Assembly: GCA_964540205.1 (NCBI GenBank)
Contig: CAZIMJ010000163.1
Coordinates: 2,847 to 66,846 of the forward strand
Direction: 5' to 3'
Source of the DNA: an uncultured Eubacteriales bacterium
GTDB taxonomy: Bacteria > Acidobacteriota > Aminicenantia > Aminicenantales > Aminicenantaceae
DNA length: 64,000 nucleotides
Below the pieces are notes generated by a model. That model ran no database searches. It saw nothing but the letters and a program-made list of their open reading frames with translations, and had not been told where the DNA came from. Positions within the stretch are counted from its first letter, which is position 1. Every line of letters starts with the position of its first letter. Below, piece after piece: positions 21,493 through 39,031 of this stretch. The position numbers were made by a program, and so were the translations under genes.

Positions 21493-21675
21493 GATCTCCC
21501 TGTAAAATCCATGAATCTTGCTGAGGCTTTATCCCAAAGGAAACGGCTAAGCTGACTATAATTATCACAGCCAATGCAAGTGGTCAACTGTCAACATTCT
21601 AAACCTTTTTCTCTGCTATGACGTCTTAATAAGGAGGGATTATTGTATATCCAGGTCTCAAAATTGGAGGTTTTA

Positions 21676-23379
21676 ATGAAACGTTTTTATTCATATCTGA
21701 TTGTCTTTGGTCTAGTCCTTTTATTCATTCCATCTTGTAACAAAGAACCGGGTTTGGGAGAAACCTTAGAGACGGAAATTCCAAGGCTGATGGAAGCAGC
21801 CGATATCCCCGGGCTGTCTATGTCCGTAATCCACGATGGAGAGATCCTGTGGTCGGGAGCCTTTGGAGTCCGGAGCCGCGAAACGAATGAACCTGTGGAT
21901 GAAAACACTATTTTTGAGGCCGCATCTCTCACAAAAACCGTAACGGCGGTTGCAGCTTTGAAGCTCGTGGAAAGAGGTGTGTTGGACTTGGATACACCCT
22001 TATCTGAATATCTCCCCTATCCAAAGCTTGCGGGCGACGAACGGTATAAAAAAATCACGACAAGGCATGTTTTGACCCACACGACCGGCCTTCCCAACTG
22101 GGGAAATAAGCTTCTCAGAGAACCGGGAGAGCTTTATGGTTATTCAGGCGAGGGATTTCTCTATTTGGGCCGCACTCTAGAAAAACTCACCGGAATAACC
22201 TTAGAGGAGTTTGCGCGAAAAGAAATATTCGATCCACTGGGGATGTCCAGGACCAGTTATGTGTGGAGCGAGCTCTACGCAGCAACTGGAGCCTCTGGTC
22301 ATGACCGTCATGGATTTACAAATCCATTGAGACAGAGAACGGACCCAAACGGCGGCGCAAGCCTTTTAACGACCGCAAAGGATTACGCCGTTTATCTCTG
22401 CGCGATCATGAACGATCAAGTTTTAAAGACGGAAACTATCGACATGATGTTGACGCCTCACGTCAAAGCGGCAAGCAGACGTGAAGAGGCAAAACTGGAT
22501 GATCACATTTCCTGGGGTTTCGGCTGGGGGATTCAACCGGGAAACACCGAGAACGGCTTCTGGCATTGGGGAGACAATGGAGACCTAAGAGCATTCACTG
22601 TTTCTTATAGAACAAGAAAAGAAGGCCTTGTGTTCTTTGCCAACTCCGAGAACTTGTTCACTATTGCGGAGTCGTTGATCTCGCTAGTGATCGATGATCC
22701 ACAATACGCCTTCGGATGGTTGACCTATAAACGGTTAGATGAGATGGAACATGATGCACGCATTAAGGTCGAAAAGGTCTTCGTGAGCGGAGACATTGAA
22801 ACCGGCTTGAAAATGCTCGAAGAGATGAGGGCTCAGGATCCCGAGACATTAAAAACACAGGATTTGAATAACATGGCGCGTTATCTAACTGAAAGAGAAA
22901 AGAACGATGCAGCCGAAGCGATATTAAAATATGTACTTCAATCTGATCAGAAATCCGATTCAGCCTGGTACGCTCTGGGCAGGTTTTATTTTGAGACGGG
23001 TCGAAACAAAGAAGCCCTCGGCCCACTCCAAAAAGCCTTGGAGTTGGATCCAAAAAATCCATTCGCCAAGCAGTACATTCCTTGGGTTAAAAAAGCAATT
23101 CAGGCGGAAGAAAAGCCCGTTGTTATTCCCGAAGAAACACTAGTGAAATATGCCGGTGTTTATGGTCCCCGTCATGTACGAATTCAGGACAGCCGCCTGT
23201 ATTATCAAAGAGAGGGCCGAAAGGAGTATGAGCTCGTGCCGCTCTCCCAGGATACATTCACTTTAAAAAACCGCGGCGTTTTTCGTCTGCGTTTTGTTTC
23301 GGATGAGAGCGGAAAGGTGACAAAAGTGATCGGGATCTACATTGATGGCCGCACTGACGAATCTTCACGAACTCGTTAG
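21676..23379 (+). CDS. Beta-lactamase-related serine hydrolase (class C/PBP-like) lipoprotein with C-terminal TPR-like extension
   Basis: RBS ggagg followed by ATG at 21676. S-x-x-K motif ASLTKT. YSGEG and HTTG motifs. Confidence 0.65.
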   Translation: MKRFYSYLIVFGLVLLFIPSCNKEPGLGETLETEIPRLMEAADIPGLSMSVIHDGEILWSGAFGVRSRETNEPVDENTIFEAASLTKTVTAVAALKLVERGVLDLDTPLSEYLPYPKLAGDERYKKITTRHVLTHTTGLPNWGNKLLREPGELYGYSGEGFLYLGRTLEKLTGITLEEFARKEIFDPLGMSRTSYVWSELYAATGASGHDRHGFTNPLRQRTDPNGGASLLTTAKDYAVYLCAIMNDQVLKTETIDMMLTPHVKAASRREEAKLDDHISWGFGWGIQPGNTENGFWHWGDNGDLRAFTVSYRTRKEGLVFFANSENLFTIAESLISLVIDDPQYAFGWLTYKRLDEMEHDARIKVEKVFVSGDIETGLKMLEEMRAQDPETLKTQDLNNMARYLTEREKNDAAEAILKYVLQSDQKSDSAWYALGRFYFETGRNKEALGPLQKALELDPKNPFAKQYIPWVKKAIQAEEKPVVIPEETLVKYAGVYGPRHVRIQDSRLYYQREGRKEYELVPLSQDTFTLKNRGVFRLRFVSDESGKVTKVIGIYIDGRTDESSRTR

Positions 23380-23436
23380 GGATAACTCGCTTTTATTGTT
23401 TTTCTTTTCCTTTAAAGCCGGCAGCCAATCAAAGTC

Positions 23437-26061
23437 TCATTCATACCGCAGCACATTGATGGGATTGGTAGATGCAACTTTTACCGTCTGTGAAGCGACT
23501 GTTCCCAGAGCCACTACGGCCGCCGCTCCTGTAGCGGCAATGAAAATCCAGGGAGACAGCGGTGCTTTATAGGCGAAATTCTGGAGCCACGTACTCATAG
23601 CAAAATAGGCGATCGGCCAGGCGAAAATACTGGAAATCAGCACCCACTTCGCAAACTCCTTGGAGAGGAGTACAAATATACGTGTACCCGATGCACCAAG
23701 CACTTTCCGGATCCCGATCTCTTTGGTTCGTTGCTCCGCTGTAAACGCAGACAAACCGAAAAGCCCTAAGCAGGCGATAGCCACAGCCAGCAAGCTGAAA
23801 ACATTAAACATGCTCCCTAGCCGGTACTCGGACTGGTATGCGCTGTCGAAGATATCGTCAAAGAAGCTGTAATCAATGGGATAATTCGGAGAGAATTTTC
23901 CCCATGTTTCTTTTAAGAAACCAAGAGTTCCAGGGATATTCCCTCCACGGATCTTGACAGACAAGTAATAAATATATCTCTGGTCCTTTCGATAGTAGAG
24001 ACACATGGGATCAATACCCCGATGGAGGGAGTGAAAATTAAAATTCTTCACAACACCCACAATCTGGCCCACATCACCCCACCAGATCTCAAAATCCCGT
24101 CCAACAGGCTGTTCCCATCCTAACGCGTTAACCAGGGATTCATTGAAGAGAAAGGAACTTTGGGCATCCGAGGGAAAATCTTTAGAAAAATTCCTCCCGT
24201 TCATAGTATCGATCCCATAGACATCCAAAAAATCCTCATCCACATAGCTCACATAAACATCAAAATAATCGAAATCCTCTGGAATACCCGGCCACTTCGG
24301 ACCCATCTGACTCTGTATATTGTTGGGAAGTGCATCCGTTGCGGTAGCTGCGATCACATTTGGATTGGCTTTTAATTCAGATTTGAAGGGATCAAGACTC
24401 TTTTTTATATCCGGGTCATGGAGCCTGATGACGACAATCTGGTCTTTCTCGTAGCCCACATCCTTGTTCTTGATAAAATCGAGCTGAAGCCGGACGACTA
24501 CAGCACCCACAATAAGCCCCACAGAAACTACAAATTGAAACACAACGAGGGCATTCCTCAGGCGCCTGCCCCCACGGCCGATTAGGATCTCCTTTTTTAA
24601 AACAAACGCCGGCCGGAAAGATGAGATCAAAAGGGCGGGATAGCTTCCGGCCAAGAAATTTATAAATCCCACAGCGATCAGCAGTCCAAAAAAAAGTGCA
24701 GGATTATTCAGCGAGGAAAAGCTCAAGTCTCGCTCTACAAAAGTGCTGAATGCGGGCAGCAAAATTTGAACAAGAACAAGGGCTAGAATCAACGCCAGAA
24801 TCAAAAAAATGAAGGATTCACCATAAAACTGCTTCACCAGATGATGGCGCAGAGCCCCCACCACTTTTCGGATCGCCACTTCTTTTCCGCGTTGGGTTGA
24901 GCAGGCCGTTGCCAGGTTCATGTAATTGATGCAGGCGATGATCAAAATGAGGAAAGCGATCGTAGAGAAAAGATAGATGTTCTTGATATTGTTGTTGGGT
25001 GCGAATTCCCCATCCAGGTCCGAATGGAGATGGATCGTAGTCATCGCCTGGAGGGATGGGCGACAGTAGCGCCGGCCGCCTGGCCATAGATCAGATTCGG
25101 CATACTTCCGATAGAGGCCTGGGATCTTCTGCTCCACAGCATGAGGGTCAGCGCCCTCATTTAATTGAACATATGAAACCGTCGCATGATTCTGCCATTT
25201 GGTTAAATCAAGTTCGGTGATTAACGCATAGGTTTGAAACGGGATGATGAGGTCCATGACAAAATGGGAATTCTGTGGCATGTTTTGGAGGATTCCAGTG
25301 ACCTTGAGATCGTAGGAATTCTCATAACGGATGACCTTACCCATGGGATTTTCCCGGCCAAAAATATGCGTGGCCATCTTTTGAGAGAGTACGATCGAGT
25401 AGGGATCCTTCAAAGCAGCATGGGACTGGCCTCTTTTCAGAGGAAGTGAAAACATCCGAAAGACCTGAGGCTCTGCAAAAATCACCTCGTTTTCTAAATA
25501 ATTCTGGTTGTCATAGTTTAAAAGAACATTTCTGTTGCGTGCAAACCGTGTGGCGAACTCCACTTCTGGAAATTCTTCCACCATTGTGGGGCCGAGCGGA
25601 GCCACTGTTCGTGTCATTGCCGTTTTCCCACCGTGAGTGTGCCTGGCAGGGAGTTCACTGGCCACGCGGTAGATACGGTGAGCATTTTCATGGTATTGAT
25701 CATAGCTCAGCTCAAACTGGACATAGATCATGATCAGAATGAAAAATGTCAGACCAATGGCAAGTCCGGCCACGTTGATGATGGTGAAGCTTTTTTGCCT
25801 TTTCATATGCCTTAAGGCTGTGATCAAATAATGCCTCGACATAATTGTGCCCCACTTTAACAGAAATTTGAGATAGGTGGGAATAGTTTTTAAGACCTGG
25901 ATTCGATACCAGCGTCTGGCTTTTGAAGATCCTCTCTCCTCCTCTATTTGATTAAACTCCTCCTCCAGATCACCAGCCCAAACAAACTCCTCATCATAGC
26001 GTCTCATGACCGAAAAGAGCCATCGGGCGAACCGGGGATGCTTTGCTTGCCCGGATTTCAT
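23437..26061 (-). CDS. FtsX/MacB-like ABC-transporter permease, paralog 2, with N-terminal cytoplasmic extension
   Basis: 874 aa with dual FtsX domains, ending …NPINVLRYE. Overlaps the upstream PadR gene by 4 nt (ATGA). Confidence 0.75.
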   Translation of the reverse strand: MKSGQAKHPRFARWLFSVMRRYDEEFVWAGDLEEEFNQIEEERGSSKARRWYRIQVLKTIPTYLKFLLKWGTIMSRHYLITALRHMKRQKSFTIINVAGLAIGLTFFILIMIYVQFELSYDQYHENAHRIYRVASELPARHTHGGKTAMTRTVAPLGPTMVEEFPEVEFATRFARNRNVLLNYDNQNYLENEVIFAEPQVFRMFSLPLKRGQSHAALKDPYSIVLSQKMATHIFGRENPMGKVIRYENSYDLKVTGILQNMPQNSHFVMDLIIPFQTYALITELDLTKWQNHATVSYVQLNEGADPHAVEQKIPGLYRKYAESDLWPGGRRYCRPSLQAMTTIHLHSDLDGEFAPNNNIKNIYLFSTIAFLILIIACINYMNLATACSTQRGKEVAIRKVVGALRHHLVKQFYGESFIFLILALILALVLVQILLPAFSTFVERDLSFSSLNNPALFFGLLIAVGFINFLAGSYPALLISSFRPAFVLKKEILIGRGGRRLRNALVVFQFVVSVGLIVGAVVVRLQLDFIKNKDVGYEKDQIVVIRLHDPDIKKSLDPFKSELKANPNVIAATATDALPNNIQSQMGPKWPGIPEDFDYFDVYVSYVDEDFLDVYGIDTMNGRNFSKDFPSDAQSSFLFNESLVNALGWEQPVGRDFEIWWGDVGQIVGVVKNFNFHSLHRGIDPMCLYYRKDQRYIYYLSVKIRGGNIPGTLGFLKETWGKFSPNYPIDYSFFDDIFDSAYQSEYRLGSMFNVFSLLAVAIACLGLFGLSAFTAEQRTKEIGIRKVLGASGTRIFVLLSKEFAKWVLISSIFAWPIAYFAMSTWLQNFAYKAPLSPWIFIAATGAAAVVALGTVASQTVKVASTNPINVLRYE

Positions 26062-26393
26062 GATAACTCGACCTTGCCTGCAGCAAGTTCAGGGATACCA
26101 TCCCAGATTTTTTTGTGAAGTTCCCGAGCGTGATGGAGGGCCTTAAGTCCCCTCGACGTCAGTGTGTAATAGATCTTACCTCGTCCCCCTCTTTGGGGAG
26201 TCGGTTTCCCATGCCTCTTCCGGACATAACCCTTACGGAGAAGTTGATCGAGTGTGTTGTAGAGTGTGCCATAGATAATATCTTTTTTTGTGATTTCTGA
26301 GACCGTTCGCCGGATGGAGACGCCGTAAGCTTCCTCCTTGAGCCGGAAGATGGTCGTCAAGATAATTTCCTCTAATACTGTGATCTCTTTCAT
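26058..26393 (-). CDS. PadR-family transcriptional regulator
   Basis: 111 aa. Winged-helix segment YGTLYNTLDQLLRKGYV. Translationally coupled to the permease. Confidence 0.8.
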   Translation of the reverse strand: MKEITVLEEIILTTIFRLKEEAYGVSIRRTVSEITKKDIIYGTLYNTLDQLLRKGYVRKRHGKPTPQRGGRGKIYYTLTSRGLKALHHARELHKKIWDGIPELAAGKVELS

Positions 26394-26404
26394 GGGAAGG
26401 GCTC

Positions 26405-26460
26405 CTGTTTCATTTTTCCGTAAAGGCCGTACATATATTTATACGTAATTTACGAAAAAA
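26405..26460. promoter_or_regulatory. Cluster of CGTAA/TTACG half-sites (candidate PadR operator) in the padR / CHAT divergent region
   Basis: Four matching segments in about 50 nt, including the inverted repeat cgtaa-t-ttacg (26433-26444): ccgtaaagg, ccgtaca, acgtaatttacg, gttacgg. Confidence 0.35.
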
Positions 26461-26755
26461 AAGTTACGGTTCTTCTCATCTTTTTCAATGTTTCAATAAT
26501 CGGAAAGGAAGAGTGTTTCCTTTGGTGGCATCCATATTATTTGAAATGTTAGAATTTTACTGTTGAAAAAATCGAGCAAGTTTTATATTTTTAAAGTAGA
26601 TTAATTAGAGGGGCCCAGCGATCACAAATAAAAATATCATTCGTAGCGGTATTTTCATCTCTTTAATCTGTCTTTTTATTCTCCATTCATCCCCACAAGA
26701 AATTCAAAAATCGGAATCCATAAAACAACTCCATCAAAAGTACTATCATATCAAG

Positions 26756-29700
26756 ATGCTGGAAGCGAACAAAAAAATCGATGATGCCTTGAACGAGCAC
26801 AAATATTTTATCAAAAAGCATCCAGATTTTTACGAAATATACCGATCATTTACAGGTATTTGCAAAGATACTCAGAAACTTGATGAAGCCATATTCTATT
26901 TCAAAGAACTACTCGCTGACGAACCAAATCAACCCGTATATTTTTATGGTTTAGGTCTCTGCTACAAAGCCCAAGAAGAATACGATAAGGCTTCCGAATA
27001 CTTCAAGAGCGCCATCGAACAAGGGGGCTCTTTCATACGTCTTTATTACGACTTGCTTGTTATGGCAAATTCGGAAAAAGAAAGCCTCTCCCTCATCGAT
27101 TATTTTGAAAAAAGATCAAAACTGTTTCCGGATAATTCTTTACTCTTTTACGGAATGGGTGCTCTATATGAATTCAAACTCAGGGATTTAACACGCGCTC
27201 ATGAATGTTACATAAGAGGCTTAGAGGTCGCAAAATCAACCCTGAACAAGCTTGAAGAGGGGCAGCATCTCAACACGATCGGCAATTATTACTGGAGTCG
27301 AGGCAATCTTCGTAAGGCTCAAAACTACTATTTGGAGGCTGCCTCAGTCATTCAAAACAAGGGAAACAAAGTAGATTTGGCAAAATATCTCTATAATTCA
27401 GGACTGATACACTGCTGGCAGGGCAATGCAATTAAAGGAAGAGAATTTTACAAAAAGGCATTGGAGGCAGACAGAGAAGTCGGAAACAAAATTCACGAAG
27501 CCAAGATCCTTAGGAGTATCGGCTACACTTATTTCCAGACAAGTCAATATTCTCTCGCCCTGGATTATTACAAACAGGCCCTAAATCTTGCGCGTGAAGT
27601 CGCAGATAAATCCGGAGAAACTCGTTATTTGCTGGATATCGGAGAAGCACACTGGGTGCAAGGCGAGTATTCTGAGGCCATTCAGCACTATGAAAACTCT
27701 CTGCACCATTCTCAAGAATCAGGTGACAAGAATACAGAAAACACAGCTTCCAACCTATTAGGCAATGCCTTTTGGAAAATCGGGGAATACTCAAAGGCAC
27801 TTCATTTCTATATACAATCGCTGATGATATGCAGAGAGATAGGTAATAAGTTGGGAGAAGCCACAGCCCTCAACAATAGCGCCATAATATACGACAAAAC
27901 AGATAATCTCTCCAAAGCCCTCGAATATTACGATGCAGCCCTTAGGATTTTCGAGGAAGCTGGCGCAAAATCCTCCCAGGGGATGTGTTTGAACAATATT
28001 GCCAGTATTCATTACAGACAACAGAACTACTCTTTTTCTCTGGAATGTTATTTACAAGCAATGAAGATCGCACAAGAAACGGGGAATAAAAGGTCTGAGG
28101 CTAATCGGCTTAAGAATATCGCTAATGTCTACAGCAAGATAAATAATTTCTCAGAGGCGGAAAAATACTATTCTGTGTCGCTCCAGGAAGCTAGAGCCAT
28201 CGAGGTCAAGGAGCTTGAAGCCAAAATATACATGGACATGGGGTATTCTCATATCGACGCTAACGACAATGTGAGAAGCATCAACTCTTTCACAAAAGCT
28301 CTCACCATCGCCCGAGAATTGGGATTGCCAGAAACAACCTGGCTATCTCATTCAGGTCTTGGAACTGCTTATGAAAAACAAGAGAGGCCAGCCGATGCAA
28401 TCTATCACTATAAAAAAGCCATAGCCGTTATCGAAGATGTACGTTCGCAACTCGAACTTGAAGAGCACAAATCAGGATTTCTTAGAAGTAAAGTTAAGGT
28501 TTATGAATCTCTTATCAACACATTGTTTATACAGAGTCAAAAACATCTTAATAAAGGGTTTGGAAAAGAAGCATTTCGCTATGCGGAAAAGGCAAAAGCT
28601 CGAGTTTTCTTAGACAGTCTGCAAACATCAAAAGTCAATCTTAGGAAAAGTTTAACTCCTAATTTAAGAGATGAAGAGTTTAAGTTATCGAGAAATATTT
28701 CAATAATCCAGACAGAATTGGTGAAGCCCGGTCTTACTCGAACACAAAGAGAAGAGCTTTTTAGAAATCTAGAAAGAGCGGAGGAAGACTATGCGAATTT
28801 TATCCAAACACTGAGGATGGAAAATCCCGAATACGTCCTCTTGGTCTATCCCAAACCCAACACACTCGAAGAAATTCAAAGCTCATTACCAGATAACGAG
28901 ACTGCCATTATCGAATATTTTCTCGGTCAGGATCATTCTTTTGTGTTTTATATAGACCAGAAAAAATTCTCTATGTTTAGATTGGTTCAAAGCAGCGATC
29001 TGCAAGCGAGAGTGAGTGATTATATCCAACTTATATCGATAAGAGACGAAAACGGAAAATTTAGGGCATTTGCGGCCGGAAAAAAATTGTTCCAAGATTT
29101 AATAGGACCCTTTGAGGCCAATCTGAAGGGAATTAAAAAACTGATCATTATTCCTGATGGCAATTTGAATTATTTACCATACGAAGCGATCATATTCTCC
29201 AGCTCTCGAAACCAGGATCAATTCTTCATTGAATCCTTTCAGATCTCATACGCTCCATCTGCCTCTTCATGGATGATGCTGTGTCAGAGGAAAAGGGCAG
29301 AGACAGCTGTCAAAGATTTCTTGGCATTTGCAGATCCTGTGTTTTTCTTCAGTACATCATCTGAGAAACAAGCCGATGCGGATAATATCTTAAGAGAGTT
29401 TTACCTTGAACAGGGATTTGACTTTTCTCCTCTTCTCTTCAGTGGAAAGGAGGTCAAACAAGTCTCAAAATATTTTAAGAAAAGATCGAGGGATATCTAC
29501 ACCAAAAGGAAGGCCAAAGAGGAAACGCTGAAGAACCTTCCATTAGAGAGCTATAAGATCATACACTTTGCCACGCATGGGTTCATCGACGAGAAGGTCC
29601 CTCACCGATCTGCATTAATTTTGACTTTAGACGAAGACCCTGCAGAAGATGGTTTTTTCCAGGCCAGAGAGGTCTTCAACCAACGCATAAATTCCAAGCT

Positions 29701-30034
29701 CGTTGTCCTCTCTGCCTGTCAAACGGGAAAAGGAAAGCTGGAAAAAGGAGAGGGAGTCATAGGGCTTTACCGGTCATTCCTTTTTGCTGGTACGCAGGCT
29801 GTACTCATGAGCTTATGGAGTATCAATGATAAGGCGACGGCAGAGTTTATGAAATATTTTTATGAAAATTTGGTACAAGGTTGTAGCAAAGTAGAAGCAT
29901 TACAAAAAGCAAAAATCAGAATGATCGCATCTGAATACAGCCATCCCTTTTATTGGGCAGCGTTTGTTTTGAACGGTGAGGGTCAATCTTCAATTGAAAT
30001 TGAGAAGCCCTCCTTTTGGGAGAGGATATTCTAG
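26756..30034 (+). CDS. TPR-repeat / CHAT-domain (caspase-like HC-dyad protease) protein
   Basis: 1092 aa. The N-terminal ~560 aa hold TPR repeats. The C-terminal CHAT domain carries the catalytic His (IIHFATHGFIDEK) and Cys (VVLSACQTGKG). Confidence 0.8.
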   Translation: MLEANKKIDDALNEHKYFIKKHPDFYEIYRSFTGICKDTQKLDEAIFYFKELLADEPNQPVYFYGLGLCYKAQEEYDKASEYFKSAIEQGGSFIRLYYDLLVMANSEKESLSLIDYFEKRSKLFPDNSLLFYGMGALYEFKLRDLTRAHECYIRGLEVAKSTLNKLEEGQHLNTIGNYYWSRGNLRKAQNYYLEAASVIQNKGNKVDLAKYLYNSGLIHCWQGNAIKGREFYKKALEADREVGNKIHEAKILRSIGYTYFQTSQYSLALDYYKQALNLAREVADKSGETRYLLDIGEAHWVQGEYSEAIQHYENSLHHSQESGDKNTENTASNLLGNAFWKIGEYSKALHFYIQSLMICREIGNKLGEATALNNSAIIYDKTDNLSKALEYYDAALRIFEEAGAKSSQGMCLNNIASIHYRQQNYSFSLECYLQAMKIAQETGNKRSEANRLKNIANVYSKINNFSEAEKYYSVSLQEARAIEVKELEAKIYMDMGYSHIDANDNVRSINSFTKALTIARELGLPETTWLSHSGLGTAYEKQERPADAIYHYKKAIAVIEDVRSQLELEEHKSGFLRSKVKVYESLINTLFIQSQKHLNKGFGKEAFRYAEKAKARVFLDSLQTSKVNLRKSLTPNLRDEEFKLSRNISIIQTELVKPGLTRTQREELFRNLERAEEDYANFIQTLRMENPEYVLLVYPKPNTLEEIQSSLPDNETAIIEYFLGQDHSFVFYIDQKKFSMFRLVQSSDLQARVSDYIQLISIRDENGKFRAFAAGKKLFQDLIGPFEANLKGIKKLIIIPDGNLNYLPYEAIIFSSSRNQDQFFIESFQISYAPSASSWMMLCQRKRAETAVKDFLAFADPVFFFSTSSEKQADADNILREFYLEQGFDFSPLLFSGKEVKQVSKYFKKRSRDIYTKRKAKEETLKNLPLESYKIIHFATHGFIDEKVPHRSALILTLDEDPAEDGFFQAREVFNQRINSKLVVLSACQTGKGKLEKGEGVIGLYRSFLFAGTQAVLMSLWSINDKATAEFMKYFYENLVQGCSKVEALQKAKIRMIASEYSHPFYWAAFVLNGEGQSSIEIEKPSFWERIF

Positions 30035-30043
30035 GAGGGAGTA

Positions 30044-30826
30044 TCAATCGTTCTTTATTTCAAACTCCTGTAAGTTTGACTCTCTGGTAATCCCATCACT
30101 CGAAAAAACAATAATCTTCCAATAGCAGACCTTCATATTTTTTATTGACTCATACTGTGCTGGGAGCAGTTTTAGGGATGTTTTTTGTGTTTTTTCAGAC
30201 ATCCAAACTTCTATCAGCTCTTCATCCAGGAGTTTGACTTGGTATCCTGCAGCTCCCGGAACAGGATCCCACTCAAAAAATCGTGGAATCTCTGCCAGAT
30301 CGCCCTTGGGATTTGTCAATTGAATAATATCGTTTTGTTTCCCTCTCACAGTATCTTCCATTCCAATAGGAGGAGTCTTCGACAAAAAGAAAACGACAAC
30401 GACAATAATCATCAAACCTGCAAGTGCGGTCGCGTATTTGAATGCAGTCTTCTGCCAAAACAAAAAAAGCGATCTTGGCTTGAAGGCAGTTCCCATATCG
30501 CTGAGTTTTGGCCTTTCCATCTCTTTGATTTTGAACTTCGCAATTTCCTTTAGTTCCTTAGTCTCTTTCTCGGATAAGGATATTCCCTCTAATCCAACAG
30601 CTATTTTTTTGCCTTCACTGAATACCTGACGGACGATCGCAAATTTCTTGCTGCATATCGGACATTCCGAGATGTGGTCCACTATTCTGTATTTTTCACT
30701 CTCACTCAGAGTTGGTGAGAATGATTGTATTATTTTATCATCATCAGGGCATTCCTGATCTGCACTCCGCTTATGATCCACAGAAGATTGATAGAGTTTC
30801 TTTAAATCCTGATTTTCCACCTTCAT
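30044..30826 (-). CDS. Anti-sigma factor (zf-HC2 N-terminal domain, single TM, periplasmic C-terminal domain)
   Basis: CPDDDKI…HISECPICSKKF zinc-finger pattern. TM segment LAGLMIIVVVVFFL. Directly downstream of the ECF sigma gene. Confidence 0.55.
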   Translation of the reverse strand: MKVENQDLKKLYQSSVDHKRSADQECPDDDKIIQSFSPTLSESEKYRIVDHISECPICSKKFAIVRQVFSEGKKIAVGLEGISLSEKETKELKEIAKFKIKEMERPKLSDMGTAFKPRSLFLFWQKTAFKYATALAGLMIIVVVVFFLSKTPPIGMEDTVRGKQNDIIQLTNPKGDLAEIPRFFEWDPVPGAAGYQVKLLDEELIEVWMSEKTQKTSLKLLPAQYESIKNMKVCYWKIIVFSSDGITRESNLQEFEIKND

Positions 30827-30873
30827 CTCTCTTCTCCTCTTTTTCTCATCATGAACGTATGGACATCATGATT

Positions 30874-31437
30874 TCAGGATGACTCCTTATTGTAAATTCC
30901 CTTTTCAAACAGTCCCTGTCTTAAATCAGCAAGCCCACGAGAGAGTAAATTTCTGGTTTTCCCGTCACTCCAATTAAAAAATTCTGATATCTCATTCAGA
31001 TCCATCCCTATAAGGTAGAGTTTGAGAACCTGCCGGCGAGATTCAATCAACGTGTCGACTGCCTTTCTGATGAGTTCTATCAACTCTTTCTTTTCATACT
31101 GCCTATCCGGATTATGCATTAGTACCTGAGGGATGTCTTCGATTGAGACAGTGCTTTCCCTTTGTAGCAACAGTTGTTTCTTCTGTAAAAATATTTTTTT
31201 CATAACTCTACAGGTCGTCGTGTATGTCACCTTCCATATATAAGAGCCGAAATTATGGATTTCCTTCTCACTTTTAAGGATTTCCCTCCAGATTTTTATT
31301 TTGACTTCCTGTTCGATATCGTCCATATCGGATAGATCTATCTGGGGAGAAGTTTTACGAATCGCAGACCGTATGAGCTGTGAGAAATGCTCGATAGTGA
31401 TTTCAATTTCTGAAATTTTTTCTGCCGACTTTGCCAT
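30874..31437 (-). CDS. ECF-subfamily RNA polymerase sigma-70 factor
   Basis: 187 aa with sigma-70 region 2 and region 4 similarity. Followed by the anti-sigma gene. Confidence 0.7.
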   Translation of the reverse strand: MAKSAEKISEIEITIEHFSQLIRSAIRKTSPQIDLSDMDDIEQEVKIKIWREILKSEKEIHNFGSYIWKVTYTTTCRVMKKIFLQKKQLLLQRESTVSIEDIPQVLMHNPDRQYEKKELIELIRKAVDTLIESRRQVLKLYLIGMDLNEISEFFNWSDGKTRNLLSRGLADLRQGLFEKGIYNKESS

Positions 31438-31449
31438 TGCGACACGTTT

Positions 31450-31465
31450 TACTGATTATAATCAG
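31450..31465. promoter_or_regulatory. Perfect 16-bp palindrome actgattataatcagt containing a TATAAT box, 13 nt upstream of the sigma-factor start
   Basis: Self-complementary. Candidate -10 element and/or operator in the divergent control region. Confidence 0.35.
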
Positions 31466-31517
31466 TTTTTCGCGCTCAGGCAAAAAAAAATACTAGAAAT
31501 TTTCTTTTTGAGTGAGA

Positions 31518-31545
31518 GGAATTCGGGTCTTAATGGCTCTTCTAA
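31518..31545 (+). promoter_or_regulatory. Candidate ECF (sigmaE-like) promoter: GGAAT -N18- TCTAA
   Basis: ggaattcgggtcttaatggctcttctaa lies about 20 nt upstream of SD aaggagg and the ATG at 31565. Spacing matches the GGAACTT-N16-TCTAA class. Confidence 0.4.
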
Positions 31546-31564
31546 ATGATAAGGAGGTGTATAC

Positions 31565-32053
31565 ATGAAAGCTTTAAATCCACATTATGGAAAAAACATG
31601 TTGTTTAGGTCAGTTTGTGCATTATCATTGAGTTTTATTCTGATTGCTGTATTTGTCTCCGGGAATGTCTATGCACAAGGTGATCCTGAGCCTGAAGAGA
31701 GCATAGTACAGGCAGCGAAAAGTGCCCTTGGGAAAATGGGAATATCTCTAGGAAATAACCTTGGCAAAGTCCGTAATGAGGCATCCACATGGGTATTCAG
31801 TGCCAAGATCGGGGATACGGCAAAAGCATTAAACTTAGGAGTGGGGCTCGCAGAACCACGTCCAACTCCTGTCAAATCAGGAACTGAGATTTTTCTGACT
31901 GTTGGCCCAAAGGGGAAGGTGACTTTTTATATCGATTCTCAGAATAAGATGAGAAACAACAGAAACAGCAGCACATCCGTTTCGATCAACAAAGATGTTA
32001 TTCTAAATGACATCGTCATCCAATCCGCGTCTTTCCCGGCAGTTGAAAGGTAA
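31565..32053 (+). CDS. Hypothetical secreted protein (signal peptide)
   Basis: 162 aa with strong RBS. Signal peptide …LIAVFVSGNVYAQG. First gene of a four-gene same-strand cluster. Confidence 0.4.
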   Translation: MKALNPHYGKNMLFRSVCALSLSFILIAVFVSGNVYAQGDPEPEESIVQAAKSALGKMGISLGNNLGKVRNEASTWVFSAKIGDTAKALNLGVGLAEPRPTPVKSGTEIFLTVGPKGKVTFYIDSQNKMRNNRNSSTSVSINKDVILNDIVIQSASFPAVER

Positions 32054-32149
32054 GTCAGTCTCGATATCATCGATATTGAGGGGTTGAGTATTTTTTATCT
32101 GGATATATGAGTTTTAGCCTGGTTTTATGAGATCTATAGGAGGTGAACA

Positions 32150-32665
32150 ATGAGAAAAATCCTATCTTTTTTAGTCATTCTGTTTTTGGTTGCGGGAATA
32201 TCCTCTCTGGCAGCAACAAAAACTCTGACCGTGAGACAGGCAGAAGCCTCGATGGGTTCCGGCATCCTATTGTTTAAAATCGAGGAACTTAAGGATTGTG
32301 TTATGGAATGCAGAGATGATTTGTCCAAGCTTACAGAAAAGGGATGCAAATGCTCCACAGAAATCCAGATCATAGATGGGTCATCCAACCGTGTTGTGGC
32401 TGATTTGGGAAAAATTAATGACATTGCCTCACCCTCTCAAATCAGTTGGATTCACAAGAAAGTCAGTGGAAATTCATTATTAGTCAAAATTAACGACGCC
32501 GGTTTTTTATCGGTCGCTCAGAAAAATTTTGAAGAGAATCGGTTTGGAGCCAAAATCTCTGGGAACTATTCGGTCAAATTGATACTTGGAGGAGTTGATG
32601 GGGAATGTGATGATGCAATTGTGATATCCCCGGAGGTGAAAGTTGAATTCCAAGTTTCTAAGTAA
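32150..32665 (+). CDS. Hypothetical secreted protein (signal peptide)
   Basis: 171 aa with RBS aggagg. Signal peptide …VAGISSLAATKT. Confidence 0.4.
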   Translation: MRKILSFLVILFLVAGISSLAATKTLTVRQAEASMGSGILLFKIEELKDCVMECRDDLSKLTEKGCKCSTEIQIIDGSSNRVVADLGKINDIASPSQISWIHKKVSGNSLLVKINDAGFLSVAQKNFEENRFGAKISGNYSVKLILGGVDGECDDAIVISPEVKVEFQVSK

Positions 32666-32714
32666 GAAAGATGAATATGTTGAGATAAAGAATAAGATTC
32701 CAACGGAGGTCAAA

Positions 32715-33266
32715 ATGAAAGAGAAAATAAAAATTCAGCCAATAATTGCTTACATGATAGCCCTCATGTTGATTGGCGGTGGTTTTTTTCTGTGTTGCCA
32801 AACGGAAGGCGAGGAGGGGAATAATCATCAGGTTACAGGGACATTCACTGTGGATGGGAAGGCCATCCCTCTCAAGTATGTTTACACCTGGCACGACTCA
32901 AGCTTTTCAGATGACACACAGAAAGATCTGATGTTCCTTTTTAGCGACAAGCCAGTTCCCGAAGATGCGGACATCCCCTTTGATCTGGGGGATTTAGGGA
33001 GGAAGGGAAAAATTCATGCCATCGAGGTGAGGTATTCCAAAAGTGAGCAGAGCATTGTGGGTGGAGCTATTCACCATGAAGCTTTTGGTAACATGATGAT
33101 GGCTTTCGGGGGGCAGTACCTCATCGTTTGCGAATTTTCAATATTGAATGAGCAATCAGCTGAAGGAAAGATTCACACAAACAAGCTTCAGGAGAGCTTC
33201 GACGACCATACATGGGAAGTCGAGGCAGAATTTAAAACGATTCTAAAAAAGGAGAAAAATCAATGA
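32715..33266 (+). CDS. Hypothetical membrane-anchored/lipoprotein
   Basis: RBS ggagg followed by ATG at 32715 (MKEKIKIQPIIAYMIALMLIGGGFFLCC). 3' end overlaps the next gene by 4 nt. Confidence 0.4.
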   Translation: MKEKIKIQPIIAYMIALMLIGGGFFLCCQTEGEEGNNHQVTGTFTVDGKAIPLKYVYTWHDSSFSDDTQKDLMFLFSDKPVPEDADIPFDLGDLGRKGKIHAIEVRYSKSEQSIVGGAIHHEAFGNMMMAFGGQYLIVCEFSILNEQSAEGKIHTNKLQESFDDHTWEVEAEFKTILKKEKNQ

Positions 33267-34030
33267 AGAAGGTAATCTGTGTTTTGTTCGGTTTTTTTAT
33301 GGTCATGGCAGTCTCTAACATTGCCGTCGCAGGCCAAAAGCCCCCGAAGCTTGAGTGCAGGAAAATGGCACTTCAAATGGCTAAAGCCTTTGACAAACGA
33401 GACATCAGTATTCTTCAAGAGCTAAGCGGCCAAGAGGCATCCGATGAGGAGGCTGAGCAGTTTAAACAAGAAATGGATGCGATGGACGAACAAGGTGTTC
33501 TTGCACCGATGATCGAAAGGATGCGCAACTTTCCGGAAATTGGCGAAATCCCGGATTGGGTTACGCATGTAACAATTGAATACAGGTATGTAGACGGAGA
33601 GCGGCAGATTGAATTCGAATCGGAATTTATATTTAAAGATGGCGCCTGGAAAGTTGATCTATTTTCTCCGAACGAAAGTGGAGATTTTGAAAGCGAGAAG
33701 GATTGGATATTGAAGAACTCTATCCCTGCCCCACCCGAAGGCCAGAAGACAATTGACGCCGGATTCAATGAGGTCATAAACAGGGTTGTTTCGGCAATCA
33801 AAGAGGAAGACGATGAGACGCTCTCTGAACTTACACCATTACGCATTCATGAAATCCAGGGAGAAAAAGAAAAGTATATTCAACTGCTGTCCCAATTCCC
33901 GACAGTTGGACCCATACCGGCACCACTCCTAGAATTTGAAATAACATTAGAGGGCGAGGATGCAGAAATCACGGTCGATTTTGAATGCCCGGAGAACAAA
34001 CTCAAAATCGTGAAGCTCGCGGTTTTTTAA
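33263..34030 (+). CDS. Hypothetical secreted protein (signal peptide), acidic
   Basis: 255 aa. Signal peptide …AVSNIAVAGQ. Translationally coupled to the upstream gene. Confidence 0.4.
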   Translation: MKKVICVLFGFFMVMAVSNIAVAGQKPPKLECRKMALQMAKAFDKRDISILQELSGQEASDEEAEQFKQEMDAMDEQGVLAPMIERMRNFPEIGEIPDWVTHVTIEYRYVDGERQIEFESEFIFKDGAWKVDLFSPNESGDFESEKDWILKNSIPAPPEGQKTIDAGFNEVINRVVSAIKEEDDETLSELTPLRIHEIQGEKEKYIQLLSQFPTVGPIPAPLLEFEITLEGEDAEITVDFECPENKLKIVKLAVF

Positions 34031-34064
34031 CTGGATTTCAGTTGCTTGTCAGCAGTCTCCGGGA

Positions 34065-34247
34065 TTAATTTATGATCCGATCAGCGGCTTTTTGCATGGC
34101 TTGCTGATTGAGCTCATGCCCTCCATTGAACTCGACGTAAGTCACATCATATCCATTTTGCTCCAGGAGTCTTTTAGATTCTCTGGCATGCTTAACGTTG
34201 AGCATATCGTCATTTGTGCCGGGTGCGATGAAAACGCGCCAGTTCAT
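34065..34247 (-). pseudogene. C-terminal remnant of an alpha/beta-hydrolase (esterase/dienelactone-hydrolase-like) gene
   Basis: 60 aa (…NGYDVTYVEFNGGHELNQQAMQKAADRII) matches esterase C-termini. The in-frame stop lies 3 codons upstream of its ATG, and no catalytic domain is present. Confidence 0.35.
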
Positions 34248-34590
34248 CTTCTCCCATCAGGGCATAGCAGCAGGACAGATTGTATATAGCTCCTTCATCA
34301 GCGAAGTCATGACTCAGCACATAAAGATAATATTGAGCGGCCTCCTTGAATTTCCCTTTTCTATAGGCCAAAGTCGCGCTTTGGAGATAATAATTGACAT
34401 CAACATCCAAGAAATCACAGATCCCTTTCTTGAAGGGATCGATCACCTCTGGTTTAGACCAATCCGTAATTTCGTCTATATCTTTTTTTTTATCAGATGC
34501 ATGGCTAGTTAAACAAAAAAGTATCACTAAAAAGAAAATGAATAACTTTCTGATGCACGATGAACGTTTCATTGAGCCACCTCTCGACAA
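34210..34590 (-). CDS. Small secreted TPR-like protein (possibly 3'-truncated)
   Basis: Signal peptide followed by a single TPR-like motif (AYRKGKFKEAAQYYLYVLS…). Ends abruptly and overlaps the esterase remnant. Confidence 0.3.
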   Translation of the reverse strand: MSRGGSMKRSSCIRKLFIFFLVILFCLTSHASDKKKDIDEITDWSKPEVIDPFKKGICDFLDVDVNYYLQSATLAYRKGKFKEAAQYYLYVLSHDFADEGAIYNLSCCYALMGEDELARFHRTRHK

Positions 34591-34760
34591 TTTTATTACA
34601 GAGTGTACATTTCTTATTTGAAATTTACCAATTCTAGTATCCTCAAAAATTATTCATCTTAAAAGTACATTTTTGGGGGCAAAAAGGGCATTTTAAGGCA
34701 AATAATTAGCAGGTTTTGTCGGTTAATTTTTTTATTTTCAAGAAAATAGGCCAGCCAAAG

Positions 34761-34783
34761 CACATATGTACATATGTACATAT
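34761..34783. repeat. Palindromic alternating repeat (CATATGTA)n just 3' of the histone-fold gene
   Basis: cacatatgtacatatgtacatat. Self-complementary alternating purine/pyrimidine run. May act as a terminator or structural site. Confidence 0.6.
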
Positions 34784-34794
34784 TCTTTTACAAC

Positions 34795-34974
34795 TCAGCG
34801 GGATCTCCACTCCTTTACTGCAAGCATGACATCCCTATCCTTGACAGTTCGTCTTCCTGCGTGTTCCGCAAGGTCTTTGCTTCGTTCGGCGATCTCTCTC
34901 GCGATCTCCTCGACCGACCGCGCCAGTTCCCGCCTACTCGATGAATCTGATGTACCAAAGGTCTCCTTTATCAT
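34795..34974 (-). CDS. Histone-fold protein (archaeal HMfB-like), 59 aa; not present in the ORF track (below its length cut-off)
   Basis: The minus-strand ORF reads MIKETFGTSDSSSRRELARSVEEIAREIAERSKDLAEHAGRRTVKDRDVMLAVKEWRSR. Residues 17-55 align with HMfB helix 2, loop 2 and helix 3 (…[33 protein letters not shown]…). The HAGR+T+K-D-+-LAV 'RT clamp' region is conserved. Confidence 0.55.
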   Translation of the reverse strand: MIKETFGTSDSSSRRELARSVEEIAREIAERSKDLAEHAGRRTVKDRDVMLAVKEWRSR

Positions 34975-35170
34975 AGAGATATTGAAATAGCTGAGAAAGG
35001 ACGGATAACACCGGCAAAATCCTCAAAGATAACATCAAGGCCAATCCCTCACTTTTCTTCCTAAACCATTGACCGTGGGTTTTTGTGTGTGATAGGCTTC
35101 CCATGATTTACTAAAGGATGCAACAAAAGCTATAAATCCGGAATATATTTAGATCTGAAAAGGAGTGACT

Positions 35171-37309
35171 ATGCAAAAACCCATACATCTTATCGGATTT
35201 CTCTTAGCGATACTGTTGGTACTTTTGGCTATTGGAATCTCTGCAAATGAACAAGCGAACATCCCAGGTCCATCTTTTGAAGAGATCATCTCGATTAGGA
35301 GTGTTGGAGGGCTGGTTATTTCTCCGGATGGAAAAAGTATTGCCTTCGGGGTACACACAACGGACTGGGAGAACAATCGCTATGATAGCGAGATCTGGCT
35401 GGCCCGTGACGGAGAAGAACCTTTCCAACTCACGCGTACCAAGAACGGGAGCAGCAGTTCACCCCAGTGGTCACCGGACGGGAAATGGCTAGCATTTCTA
35501 ACAGATCGCGGTGAAAGAAGACAGATCTATTTGATCCGTCCCAATGGTGGTGAAGCTCAAAAAATCACAGAAGCCAAAGAGGGCATCAACAGCTTCGAGT
35601 GGTCCCCTGATGGCACGCAGATCCTTTTCGCTAAGAGTGATGAAATAGAGAGCAAAGAAGAACGAGAGAAACGATTCGGAAAATTCGCAGTAGAGGACGC
35701 CGAGTATCAATTCACACATCTGTGGATCGTTGATGTGAAGCATGACTTATGGCCATCGCCTGAAGAAGTTCCGTGTCACGAATCAGACACCAAAACCGAT
35801 TCCAACAAAGATGATTCTGATCCACAAAATACAAAAGATGACTGTATCTCTCTGCCAAAACCAAAGCAGTTAACAAAAGGGGATAAGTTTACCGTATATA
35901 GTTATTCCTTTTCACCTGATGGAAAAAAAGTGGCTTTTTCCCATCAAGTCAATCCGCTCCGAAATTCGTACACGACCTCGGACATTTCAATTCTGAATAT
36001 GGAAACAGGCGGAATCCAGCCATTGGTGAGCAATCCTGGTTATGATGGAGACCCCATCTGGTCACCTGATTCCAGATGGATCCTTTATTATACAGCAGCA
36101 GGAAACACAACATCGGATTATTACTTGAATGGGCAAATTCACAAGATTTCTGCTGATGGTGGAGAATCCATCCGAATGGCTGATGACTTTGATGAGGATA
36201 TTCGTATTATTGATTGGAACTCCTCCGGCATATATTTCACGGCGTGGCAAAAAACAAAAAGACATCTCTTCTTCCTCGATCCCGATTCTGGAAAGACAAA
36301 ACATTTCGCAACAACACCCAGCTTAATCGGGTCGGTTGATTTTTCGGCGGATGGAAAAACATTGGCATTAAGTGGACAAAATCCAACCACGTTCTCCGAG
36401 ATCTACACAACATCTCGCAATAACTACAAGCCCGTAGCATTGACCAATTTTACCAAGCAAATCAAGGATTGGCATGTAGGAACAAGCGAAGTCATTGCAT
36501 GGAAAAGTAAAGACGGAGCGACTATAGAGGGAATTTTACACAAACCACATAATTTCGACCCTAATAAAAAACATCCTCTTTTCGTCATTATTCATGGAGG
36601 ACCAACCGGAATTGATTTTCCAGCTGTGAATACCGGGTACGTTTATCCTATGCTGCAGTGGTTAGAAAAAGGTGCTTTGGTATTGAAACCCAATTACCGC
36701 GGATCAGCTGGATACGGTGAAAAATTCCGATCTCTCAATGTCCGCAATCTGGGTGTCGGAGATATGTGGGATGTCATGTCGGGTGTGGATTTTCTTATTG
36801 AACAAGGCCTTGTGGATCCAGAAAAAATGGGAGCCATGGGTTGGAGTCAGGGTGGATACATATCCGCATTTTTAACGACCAACACGGATCGATTCAAAGC
36901 CATCTCTGTAGGAGCAGGTATATCGAATTGGATGACATACTACGTGAACACCGACATTCATCCATTCACCCGACAGTACTTGAAAGCAACTCCATGGGAT
37001 GACCCGGAGATCTATGCCAAAACATCGCCCATGAGCAACATCAAAAATGCACGGACGCCAACACTCATCCAGCACGGAGAATTTGACAGGCGCGTTCCCA
37101 TCCCGAATGCATATGAACTCTTCCAGGGACTACAAGACATTGGTGTTGAAACAGAATTGATCGTCTACAAAGGATTCGGGCACGGAATCAGCAAACCCAA
37201 GGAACGCCTTGCTGCTATGTGGCACAACTGGAAATGGTTCGCCAAATATATCTGGAATAAAGAGGTTACACTGCCATTAAAAATAGAGAAGGGCAACAAA
37301 GAGAAATAG
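35171..37309 (+). CDS. S9-family serine peptidase (prolyl oligopeptidase / acylaminoacyl-peptidase-like) with N-terminal beta-propeller
   Basis: RBS aaaaggag followed by ATG at 35171. WSPDG propeller repeats. Nucleophile GWSQGGYISAF. C-terminal DRRVP…GFGHGI. Confidence 0.8.
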   Translation: MQKPIHLIGFLLAILLVLLAIGISANEQANIPGPSFEEIISIRSVGGLVISPDGKSIAFGVHTTDWENNRYDSEIWLARDGEEPFQLTRTKNGSSSSPQWSPDGKWLAFLTDRGERRQIYLIRPNGGEAQKITEAKEGINSFEWSPDGTQILFAKSDEIESKEEREKRFGKFAVEDAEYQFTHLWIVDVKHDLWPSPEEVPCHESDTKTDSNKDDSDPQNTKDDCISLPKPKQLTKGDKFTVYSYSFSPDGKKVAFSHQVNPLRNSYTTSDISILNMETGGIQPLVSNPGYDGDPIWSPDSRWILYYTAAGNTTSDYYLNGQIHKISADGGESIRMADDFDEDIRIIDWNSSGIYFTAWQKTKRHLFFLDPDSGKTKHFATTPSLIGSVDFSADGKTLALSGQNPTTFSEIYTTSRNNYKPVALTNFTKQIKDWHVGTSEVIAWKSKDGATIEGILHKPHNFDPNKKHPLFVIIHGGPTGIDFPAVNTGYVYPMLQWLEKGALVLKPNYRGSAGYGEKFRSLNVRNLGVGDMWDVMSGVDFLIEQGLVDPEKMGAMGWSQGGYISAFLTTNTDRFKAISVGAGISNWMTYYVNTDIHPFTRQYLKATPWDDPEIYAKTSPMSNIKNARTPTLIQHGEFDRRVPIPNAYELFQGLQDIGVETELIVYKGFGHGISKPKERLAAMWHNWKWFAKYIWNKEVTLPLKIEKGNKEK

Positions 37310-37986: not shown

Positions 37987-38724
37987 TTGGATTACTACTT
38001 ATTTTCCTTGGGAAGTACCCGCGAGCTTAAAGAATTGGCGAAAAAAGAGACTTCTAAAATCAAAAACATATTCAGAGGAATTGCGCTATTTGGCAGCCTT
38101 CTGGCCTTGTTTTTCGTTTCAGCAGGAACATTCAACTGGGCCGAAGCCTGGCTGTTTCTTTTTCTTTACGCAGTTGCAGTGACAGGAATGGTGGTCTGGA
38201 TGAAGAAAAATGCTCCGGAACTCCTCAAAGAACGAACGTCAAGAAAAAAAGACGCCAAAACCTGGGATAAAATTATCATGATTATTTATACTTTTCTGGT
38301 GATGGCCATGATTGCGGTTGCAAGCTTCGACGCCGTTCGATACCAGTGGTCTCATGTACCTTTAGGGGTAAGAGTTTTGGGATTTTTATGTTTTATCCCC
38401 GCATACATGTTGATCTTCTGGACAATGACCCAAAATCGCTATTTGTCCGACGTCGTCAGAATCCAGGAAGACCGAGGACATGAAGTCTGCACGACAGGAC
38501 CCTATAGATACGTCCGGCACCCCATGTATGTTGGAGTCATCATTTTCGTGCTTTGTCTCCCTCTAGCACTTGGATCCTACTTTGCGCTTTTCTTCAGTGT
38601 ACCTATTATATTCGTTTTCCTGATCCGAACCTCACTTGAAGACAATACCCTACAAAAAGAGCTGCCGGGTTATAAAGAATATGCAGAAGAGGTCCGGTAT
38701 AGGCTGATACCTGGATTGTGGTAG
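37987..38724 (+). CDS. Isoprenylcysteine-carboxyl-methyltransferase (ICMT)-family membrane methyltransferase
   Basis: Multi-TM protein. Motifs RYVRHPMYVG and C-terminal SLEDNTLQKELPGYKEYAEEV (RHPxY / EExxLxxxFGxxYxxY pattern). Confidence 0.55.
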   Translation: MDYYLFSLGSTRELKELAKKETSKIKNIFRGIALFGSLLALFFVSAGTFNWAEAWLFLFLYAVAVTGMVVWMKKNAPELLKERTSRKKDAKTWDKIIMIIYTFLVMAMIAVASFDAVRYQWSHVPLGVRVLGFLCFIPAYMLIFWTMTQNRYLSDVVRIQEDRGHEVCTTGPYRYVRHPMYVGVIIFVLCLPLALGSYFALFFSVPIIFVFLIRTSLEDNTLQKELPGYKEYAEEVRYRLIPGLW

Positions 38725-38737
38725 GTGTACAGCAATT

Positions 38738-39031
38738 TTGCCCGTCATTCTGGCCGCTGGGGCAACCGTCCCAGGTATGCCCATCATGGCATTCGCCCTG
38801 CTCTTATGCTATCTATCGGGCATTATGGGCATCCTCACTCCCTATGCCACAGGTCCAGCCCCGATTTATTTCGGAAGTAGTTACATCTCGCGAAAGGACT
38901 TCTGGACTCTGGGCCTCGTATTCGGCGCCATCTTCCTGCTCGCCCTGTTAATCAGCGTGCCATACCTATTAGCCATCTATCAACTTGAACAGAAAAAAAC
39001 TTTCCCTTCCTATGCGCGTATGACAAAATAG
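38738..39031 (+). pseudogene. C-terminal remnant of a DASS/SLC13-type anion transporter
   Basis: The 97-aa hydrophobic ORF contains …GILTPYATGPAPIYFGSSYISRKDFW…, matching the conserved C-terminal hairpin of DASS permeases. No upstream N-terminal part in any frame. Confidence 0.4.

Follow-up and report, generated by a model that had tools for sequence, protein, structure and literature searches.

Nucleosomal histones, which are defined by an R-(K/R)-T motif with a downstream Asp (RxTxxxxD) in loop L2 and by α2 and α3 of full length, have been reported only from archaea (PMC11390915, Schwab et al. 2024). HBb (Bd0055) of Bdellovibrio, the "bacterial dimer," and the face-to-face histones of Leptospira are bacterial, patchily distributed, and presumably of archaeal origin. 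In both types α3 comprises 3 to 4 residues and α2 is shortened by 4 to 5 residues (PMC11390915). Neither the main text of that survey and of the systematic survey by Hocher et al. 2023 (PMC10627809) nor the portions of their supplements that were searched mention Aminicenantes, and the Acidobacteria entries in the searched portion of the latter's table are of the α3-truncated type. A literature search for Aminicenantes histones returned no relevant paper.

Here we analyzed a 64,000-nucleotide stretch of bacterial DNA (referred to below as the window), in which a 59-aa ORF with histone similarity had been proposed to be an intact gene of an unusually short type, hidden in an intergenic gap. We assign a probability of roughly 0.78 to a different reading, namely, that the ORF is a truncated remnant, or young pseudogene, of a 70-aa HMfB-type histone gene of Aminicenantes. 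The ORF itself would then carry little weight, having only recently fallen victim to deletions in a variable part of the genome, and it illustrates why a new histone type should not be claimed from a short histone-like frame devoid of signals for expression. The wider interest lies in the intact HMfB-type family of 70 to 73 aa, which would be inherited within a bacterial lineage and which we found in at least 14 Aminicenantes or Acidobacteriota assemblies. The features of the locus are collected in Table 1.

TABLE 1 Features of the histone locus and its surroundings in the window
Feature	Position	Strand	Description
TPR/alpha-beta-hydrolase remnant	34056..34617	(-)	Next gene downstream of the histone; deletion pseudogene
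Tandem repeat, ACATATGT x 2.8	34762..34783		100% matches; starts 12 nt after the stop codon
Truncated histone-fold ORF, 59 aa	34795..34974	(-)	ATG at 34974-34972, stop codon TGA at 34797-34795
Retained orthologous part	34795..34931	(-)	ORF codons 15-59 and stop, corresponding to family codons 26-70; α2, L2 (GRRTVKDRD), α3
Junction DNA	34932..35052	(-)	About 121 nt, barely similar to relatives; source of ORF codons 1-14 (MIKETFGTSDSSSR)
Shared intergenic DNA	35053..35164		Upstream of the S9 peptidase; includes the conserved motif GCCTATCACACACAAAAACCCACGGTCAATGG
S9-family peptidase, 714 aa	35165..37309	(+)	Divergent from the histone ORF; same neighbor in L007, L008, and L010
Na/sulfate symporter remnant	38717-38980	(+)	Last 88 of 480 codons; between an ICMT-like gene and the next ORF

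The 59-aa ORF corresponds to α2, L2, and α3 of a histone

Both the position and the residues of the ATG-initiated minus-strand frame were exactly as originally predicted. The surrounding gap of 574 bp (34591 to 35164) is bounded by a 126-codon ORF (34210 to 34590, minus strand) and by the peptidase ORF. Against Pfam, the ORF matched PF00808 (CBFD_NFYB_HMF) with 30.5 bits (E = 4.4e-7; profile positions 24 to 65 of 65), above the gathering score of 21.4 that defines membership. A phmmer search against all PDB sequences returned HMfB of Methanothermus fervidus first (1a7w; E = 1.8e-7; ORF residues 12 to 57 against HMfB residues 23 to 68), followed by HPhA of Pyrococcus horikoshii and HMfA of M. 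fervidus. The proposed histone-fold homology is thus well founded. In both searches the aligned part comprised only α2, L2, and α3 and began in α2, which bears out the proposal that the second half of the ORF matches helix 2, loop 2, and helix 3 of HMfB and that helix 1 is missing. The shortness of the ORF, its lack of a Shine-Dalgarno (SD) sequence, and its location in an AT-rich intergenic gap might suggest a chance frame with spurious histone similarity, but these scores already refute this explanation, as does the DNA identity of approximately 94% that the 137 retained nt, counting the stop codon, share with a gene annotated as a histone; the probability of a chance frame is close to nil. 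Against NCBIfam model NF043032 ("archaea_histone"), by which PGAP assigns the name "histone," the ORF scored 47.7 bits, 2.3 bits below the curated cutoff of 50 bits, while the full-length relative P0002, described below, passed with 58.2 bits.

The residues GRRTVKDRD (positions 40 to 48) contain the L2 motif of nucleosomal histones, and α3 has 13 residues. Counterparts of HMfB L46, H49, R52, T54, D59, and L62 are all present in the ORF, and in the alignment L35, H38, and L51 take the places of L46, H49, and L62, which form the dimer-dimer contact (four-helix bundle) of HMfB. By contrast, the counterparts of HMfB R10, G16, and R19 are absent or replaced by FGTSDSSS. Compared with HMfB, HMfA, and HPhA, its best matches in the PDB, the window copy has α2 and α3 of full length but lacks α1, L1, and those three residues, and its host is a bacterium. 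It differs from HBb and the face-to-face histones, since in the models of both the ORF and P0002 α3 has 13 residues and α2 has 28 to 30, so that neither is of the α3-truncated type.

The AlphaFold2 model of the ORF reached a pLDDT of 76 and consisted of two helices (residues 11 to 40 and 46 to 58), both lying in the retained part, plus a 4-residue turn. As judged from alignment and model, it does not have the α1-L1-α2-L2-α3 structure that defines the histone fold. A Foldseek search of this model against the PDB gave no significant match (best E = 3.3), a two-helix hairpin being too small to be informative, and we therefore modeled and searched full-length P0002 instead. Its model had a pLDDT of 94.5, with helices at residues 6 to 15, 22 to 49, and 57 to 69, and superimposed on HMfA, HPhA, and HMfB with TM scores of 0.88 to 0.89 (query normalized), 0.8 to 1.2 Å rmsd, and 48 to 49% identity.

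The α1 helix is required for packing of the histone-fold dimer, and mutational and structural work on HMfB has placed R10 and R19 among the essential DNA contacts. A functional variant without α1 would have to pair through α2 and α3, either as a homodimer or with a full-length histone from another locus of the genome, and could then bind DNA weakly or cap or poison histone oligomers. Its synthesis would depend on a new start (ATA to ATG) and on a promoter that we did not recognize. The retained interface and L2 residues argue for such a variant, while the loss of α1, L1, and the R10 and R19 counterparts and the drop in pLDDT from 94.5 to 76 argue against it; weighing these together with the evidence given in the following sections, we regard it as unlikely.

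Full-length histones are conserved in Aminicenantes and related bacteria

In a search space of 5.8 billion proteins, the 59-aa protein had an identical copy in JGI metagenomes and 27 other homologous clusters with 56 to 87% identity. Nearly all of these 27 clusters consisted of proteins of 69 to 73 aa with α1 and L1, a few being broken; the full-length proteins start with MGELSTLALKRIIRETGARASRKAARELAR. Several clusters came from Candidatus Aminicenantes MAGs and were labeled "histone" or "NFYB/HAP3 family" by their sources. As NCBI already names full-length members "histone" through NF043032, the family cannot be called unannotated.

A scan of one genome per species identified the gene in 13 bacterial assemblies (Aminicenantes, Acidobacteriota, and some classified only as uncultured bacteria), among them the 4.35-Mb chromosome CP070750.1, and addition of locus L004 (GCA_049651265.1) brought the number to at least 14. 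The remaining matches of the scan were all archaeal (Hadesarchaea, Woesearchaeota, and Halobacteria). All 13 species representatives and L004 carried a full-length gene for a protein of 70 to 73 aa with the order α1-L1-α2-L2-α3. The retained part of the ORF is conserved in related assemblies. Among 28 homologous clusters and 14 assemblies, no second, diverged lineage shared the truncation, which is a further argument against a functional variant.

P0002 (MAG Candidatus Aminicenantaceae, GCA_049651265.1, JBASBU010000100.1), whose type is also encoded in L007 to L019, is orthologous to the window copy. The window copy shares 43 of its 45 retained residues with the P0002-type histone and about 94% of its DNA with L004 from codon 26 to the stop codon and into the 3' flank, and it has the same flanks. 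Relative to the P0002 type, it is missing the TGnTATAAT box, GGAG, and the first 11 to 25 codons (α1 and L1), whereas its 14 N-terminal codons are novel and a repeat beyond the stop codon has expanded by 16 nt. The neighborhood shared with relatives comprises a methyltransferase gene, the ICMT-like gene, and the S9 peptidase gene, and flanking genes are 78 to 97% identical in DNA between the window and the relative assemblies. In L007, L008, and L010 the peptidase gene lies divergently upstream of the full-length histone gene and encodes a protein with 83 to 92% amino acid identity to that of the window.

P0002 has R11, G17, and R19 as counterparts of HMfB R10, G16, and R19. In a neighbor-joining tree the 14 bacterial sequences formed one clade among archaeal ones, which for a short protein and in a tree with no support values is only indicative. 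By sequence and model, the intact family appears to belong with the archaeal nucleosomal histones and not with the characterized bacterial ones; its members are syntenic, seem to form one clade, and are predicted to keep the counterparts of both the DNA contacts and the tetramer interface of archaeal histones. By analogy, we infer that the intact ancestral gene acts like archaeal nucleosomal histones, whose dimers and tetramers would bind, bend, or wrap DNA through paired L1-L2 sites. It is quite improbable that the 59-aa product is made and works as an α1-less "two-thirds histone" modulating such a nucleosomal-type bacterial chromatin system, a system that would itself depart from the reported confinement of nucleosomal histones to archaea.

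The promoters of the full-length genes were also conserved among close relatives. GGAG or GAGG precedes the ATG by about 10 nt in L004 and L007 to L014, and an extended -10 box, TG(A/C)TATAAT, lies 64 to 70 nt upstream in the eight closest loci (L004, L007 to L011, and metagenome contigs L085 and L086). In the more distant Aminicenantes and Acidobacteriota genes (L015 to L019), the distance from TATAAT to the ATG is short: L015 to L018, of which only L015 has a clear GGAG, contain it in the 15 nt preceding the ATG, and L019 has TGCTATAAT at -17 without an SD. Judging from this spacing, these histone mRNAs may have no leader or hardly any, in contrast to the closer relatives, whose genes are led by GGAG.

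The 5' end of the gene is missing from the window

All blastn matches of the window to L004 and L007 to L011 end at 34931 (ORF codon 15, codon 26 of the full gene), and homology resumes only at about 35053 to 35064, upstream of the S9 peptidase gene. Where the window has about 121 to 132 nt, the relatives hold 266 nt (L007) to 312 nt (L010), which carry the TGnTATAAT box, the 5' untranslated region, GGAG, the ATG, and codons 1 to 25. All that marks the intact gene in relatives (promoter box, GGAG, ATG, and a reading frame of 70 to 73 codons) is absent upstream of 34974. This sharp breakpoint, together with orthologues that are all 69 to 73 aa long with α1 and L1, does not support an intact hidden gene of a short type. 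The original prediction had itself named the alternative that the frame is a decayed fragment of a larger gene, and the loss of promoter, SD, start codon, and the first 11 to 25 codons is what such a fragment would display.

ORF codons 1 to 5 (ATG ATA AAG GAG ACC) match family codons 12 to 16 in register at 10 to 11 of 15 nt, the ATG sitting exactly at family codon 12 (ATA), and MIKET resembles the family sequence IIK(D/E)T. This register speaks for a functional variant. Codons 6 to 14 (FGTSDSSSR, 27 nt) had no match on either strand in the relatives, the rest of the window, or the collected loci. Positions 35009 to 34972 (38 nt) are 82% similar to L004 3650-3686, intergenic DNA beside the methyltransferase gene, and this was the only match that blastn-short on both strands and a repeat search gave when inversion or local duplication was considered as the source of the junction; neither was retained. 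A frameshifted full-length gene was likewise rejected, as sensitive tblastn with the α1/L1 peptide over all frames of 34900 to 35200 gave only noise, including "MGSLS" at 35104 to 35090, which falls within an intergenic motif that in relatives is located about 300 nt upstream of the true start. No α1-coding sequence was thus found in any frame upstream of the retained part.

These data are compatible with either one replacement or two steps, a deletion of about 115 to 135 nt and then another local change. In both cases the gene has lost its promoter box, SD, original start, L1, and α1 entirely or for the most part. In the sequence of events that we propose, deletion or replacement of the 5' end of the conserved 70-aa gene would have left the 3' two-thirds behind, removing the promoter box, the SD, the original ATG, α1, and L1. 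An in-frame ATG in the junction DNA would then open the 59-codon frame; this new start may have arisen by a single change of ATA to ATG and may even have been selected.

The remaining upstream DNA offered no substitute signals. No SD precedes the ORF, the 20 nt before its ATG being TCAGCTATTTCAATATCTCT, while the divergent S9 peptidase gene has AAAGGAG at the SD position, which agrees with the contrast to a neighboring gene drawn in the original prediction. Neither a TGnTATAAT or TAnAAT box nor an SD was detected in the 190 nt upstream of 34974, and a generic promoter scan returned as many matches as expected from shuffled sequence, the nearest one overlapping the ATG of the ORF. The lack of SD and promoter box weighs against a functional variant. 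Since the window copy has neither recognizable transcription and translation signals nor α1 and the L1 arginine, it is most likely a young pseudogene that yields no working histone. The lower pLDDT and the lost structural match of the 59-aa model relative to P0002 also favor a dead copy.

An out-of-frame ORF of 47 codons (34815 to 34958, minus strand) has a TTG start 5 nt after a perfect AAGGAG located within codons 3 and 4 of the remnant; although this AAGGAG is the only SD-like signal of the region, the ORF is probably meaningless. The motif GCCTATCACACACAAAAACCCACGGTCAATGG (35053 to 35110 in the window) is conserved about 250 to 300 nt upstream of the histone start in L007 to L011, with or without the S9 peptidase gene, and may have a regulatory role; the window still has this motif although the histone promoter is lost there. 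An AT-rich sequence resembling TTATCC..TTTTTC.A.TT..ATT.AA.AT.T occurs at L004 3650-3686, at about L004 4290-4320, and at 35009 to 34972 of the window. The copies in L004 flank a 181-aa gene between the methyltransferase and the histone genes, and this spacer may, to judge from the sequences compared, be a recurrent hot spot of insertion and deletion.

The truncated allele is real and its codons are undecayed

The identical 59-aa ORF and junction were present in three independently assembled JGI metagenome contigs from three samples (L001 to L003), two of which matched the window without a difference (100%) over 1.45 and 1.7 kb, whereas the third had 99.25% identity over 3.06 kb. Metagenome assembly sometimes produces chimeras where short genes sit at rearranged junctions, and the closest nonbacterial relatives of the histone are archaeal (Hadesarchaea and Woesearchaeota). 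We therefore considered that misassembly, a sequencing frameshift, or a chimeric contig might have corrupted the 5' end of a full-length gene, or that an archaeal contaminant had entered a bacterial bin. The identical junction in three assemblies rules out misassembly and establishes the truncated allele as real. The absence of α1 sequence in any frame, the typical bacterial genes around the histone (those for MacB/FtsX, the S9 peptidase, a beta-lactamase-fold protein, and an ECF sigma factor), and its synteny across 14 bacterial assemblies, the 4.35-Mb chromosome CP070750.1 included, likewise speak against an artifact, which we consider extremely improbable.

All 23 differences between L001 and the window fall into two patches of the peptidase gene, 35720 to 35802 and 36295 to 36329, and these patches suggest recombination between co-occurring strains.

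The 45 retained codons contained no frameshift and no stop and differed from L004 by six synonymous and two conservative nonsynonymous changes, with one window-specific base. Such an intact frame with mostly synonymous differences is what a functional variant would show, and the lack of decay is a point against a remnant, as it fits purifying selection as well as very recent truncation. The recurrence of the allele in no fewer than three other metagenome assemblies, including one of a slightly different strain (99.25%), also counts against the remnant reading and for a functional variant, because a lesion that persists in several samples was not immediately purged. Only about four substitutions fall on the window branch, so that a selection test on the retained codons has no power, and with so few changes "recently truncated" and "still selected" look alike; the undecayed codons may reflect either, and a number of changes too small to demonstrate selection is a point against the functional variant. 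Among the matches listed in the metagenome scan, diverged copies of the truncated form were lacking, and only full-length relatives and archaeal histones appeared.

A palindromic repeat follows the stop codon

An unusual palindrome had been noted after the ORF. The palindrome is indeed there, but its special nature did not hold up, as it proved to be a local expansion of a unit that is single in L004. The 8-nt unit ACATATGT is self-complementary, and since it equals its own reverse complement, tandem copies are automatically palindromic; here they form a perfect palindrome of 10 + 10 nt, 20 to 22 nt in all. In L004 a single unit (GAATATGTGC) occupies the corresponding position beyond the stop codon, and the window has two extra units (a 16-nt expansion). 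The repeat occurred nowhere else in the window. A simple scan found no terminator-like site, and the fold of the palindrome was not unusual (z = -1.2), and we dismissed a role as terminator, RNA element, or dispersed repeat; no Rfam family or tRNA was detected anywhere in the window. We read the repeat as a lineage-specific slippage expansion that bears no sign of function.

Other gene remnants and disrupted histone genes

Three gene remnants lie within 5 kb of one another, those of the histone, the TPR/hydrolase, and the symporter. The TPR/hydrolase remnant keeps aa 1 to 127 (frame -2) and 346 to 406 (frame -3) of the 406-aa protein encoded by L009, with 218 codons missing and the frame shifted. 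The Na/sulfate symporter gene is intact in L004 (607 to 2049), and its remnant in the window lies about 4 kb from the histone ORF. That these neighbors, too, are deletion remnants supports a dead histone copy and weighs against a functional variant.

Disrupted copies of the histone gene were also found elsewhere in the family, in other samples (L087, P0028, P0030, and P0034). In L087 (Ga0209427_10147264, 707 to 1039) another codon takes the place of the histone start, upstream of which the frame stays open. The N terminus of P0030 consists of 25 unrelated residues, P0034 is deleted internally, and P0028 is frameshifted at its C terminus. Some of these may be errors of low-coverage assemblies, the coverage of the P0030 contig being about 2. 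From the sequences, the histone gene nevertheless appears to have been lost repeatedly, and its repeated, independent breakage in the window, L087, P0028, P0030, and P0034 suggests that the histone is dispensable in some of these bacteria. Such breakage bears on the role that a borrowed archaeal histone plays in a bacterial cell.

Downstream of the histone lies a variable island of the window (about 26475 to 34569; 21604 to 34669 relative to L004) that is absent from L007 and L004. Besides several genes whose products have no Pfam match, it contains those for an ECF-type sigma factor and a TPR-CHAT protein of 1,092 aa.
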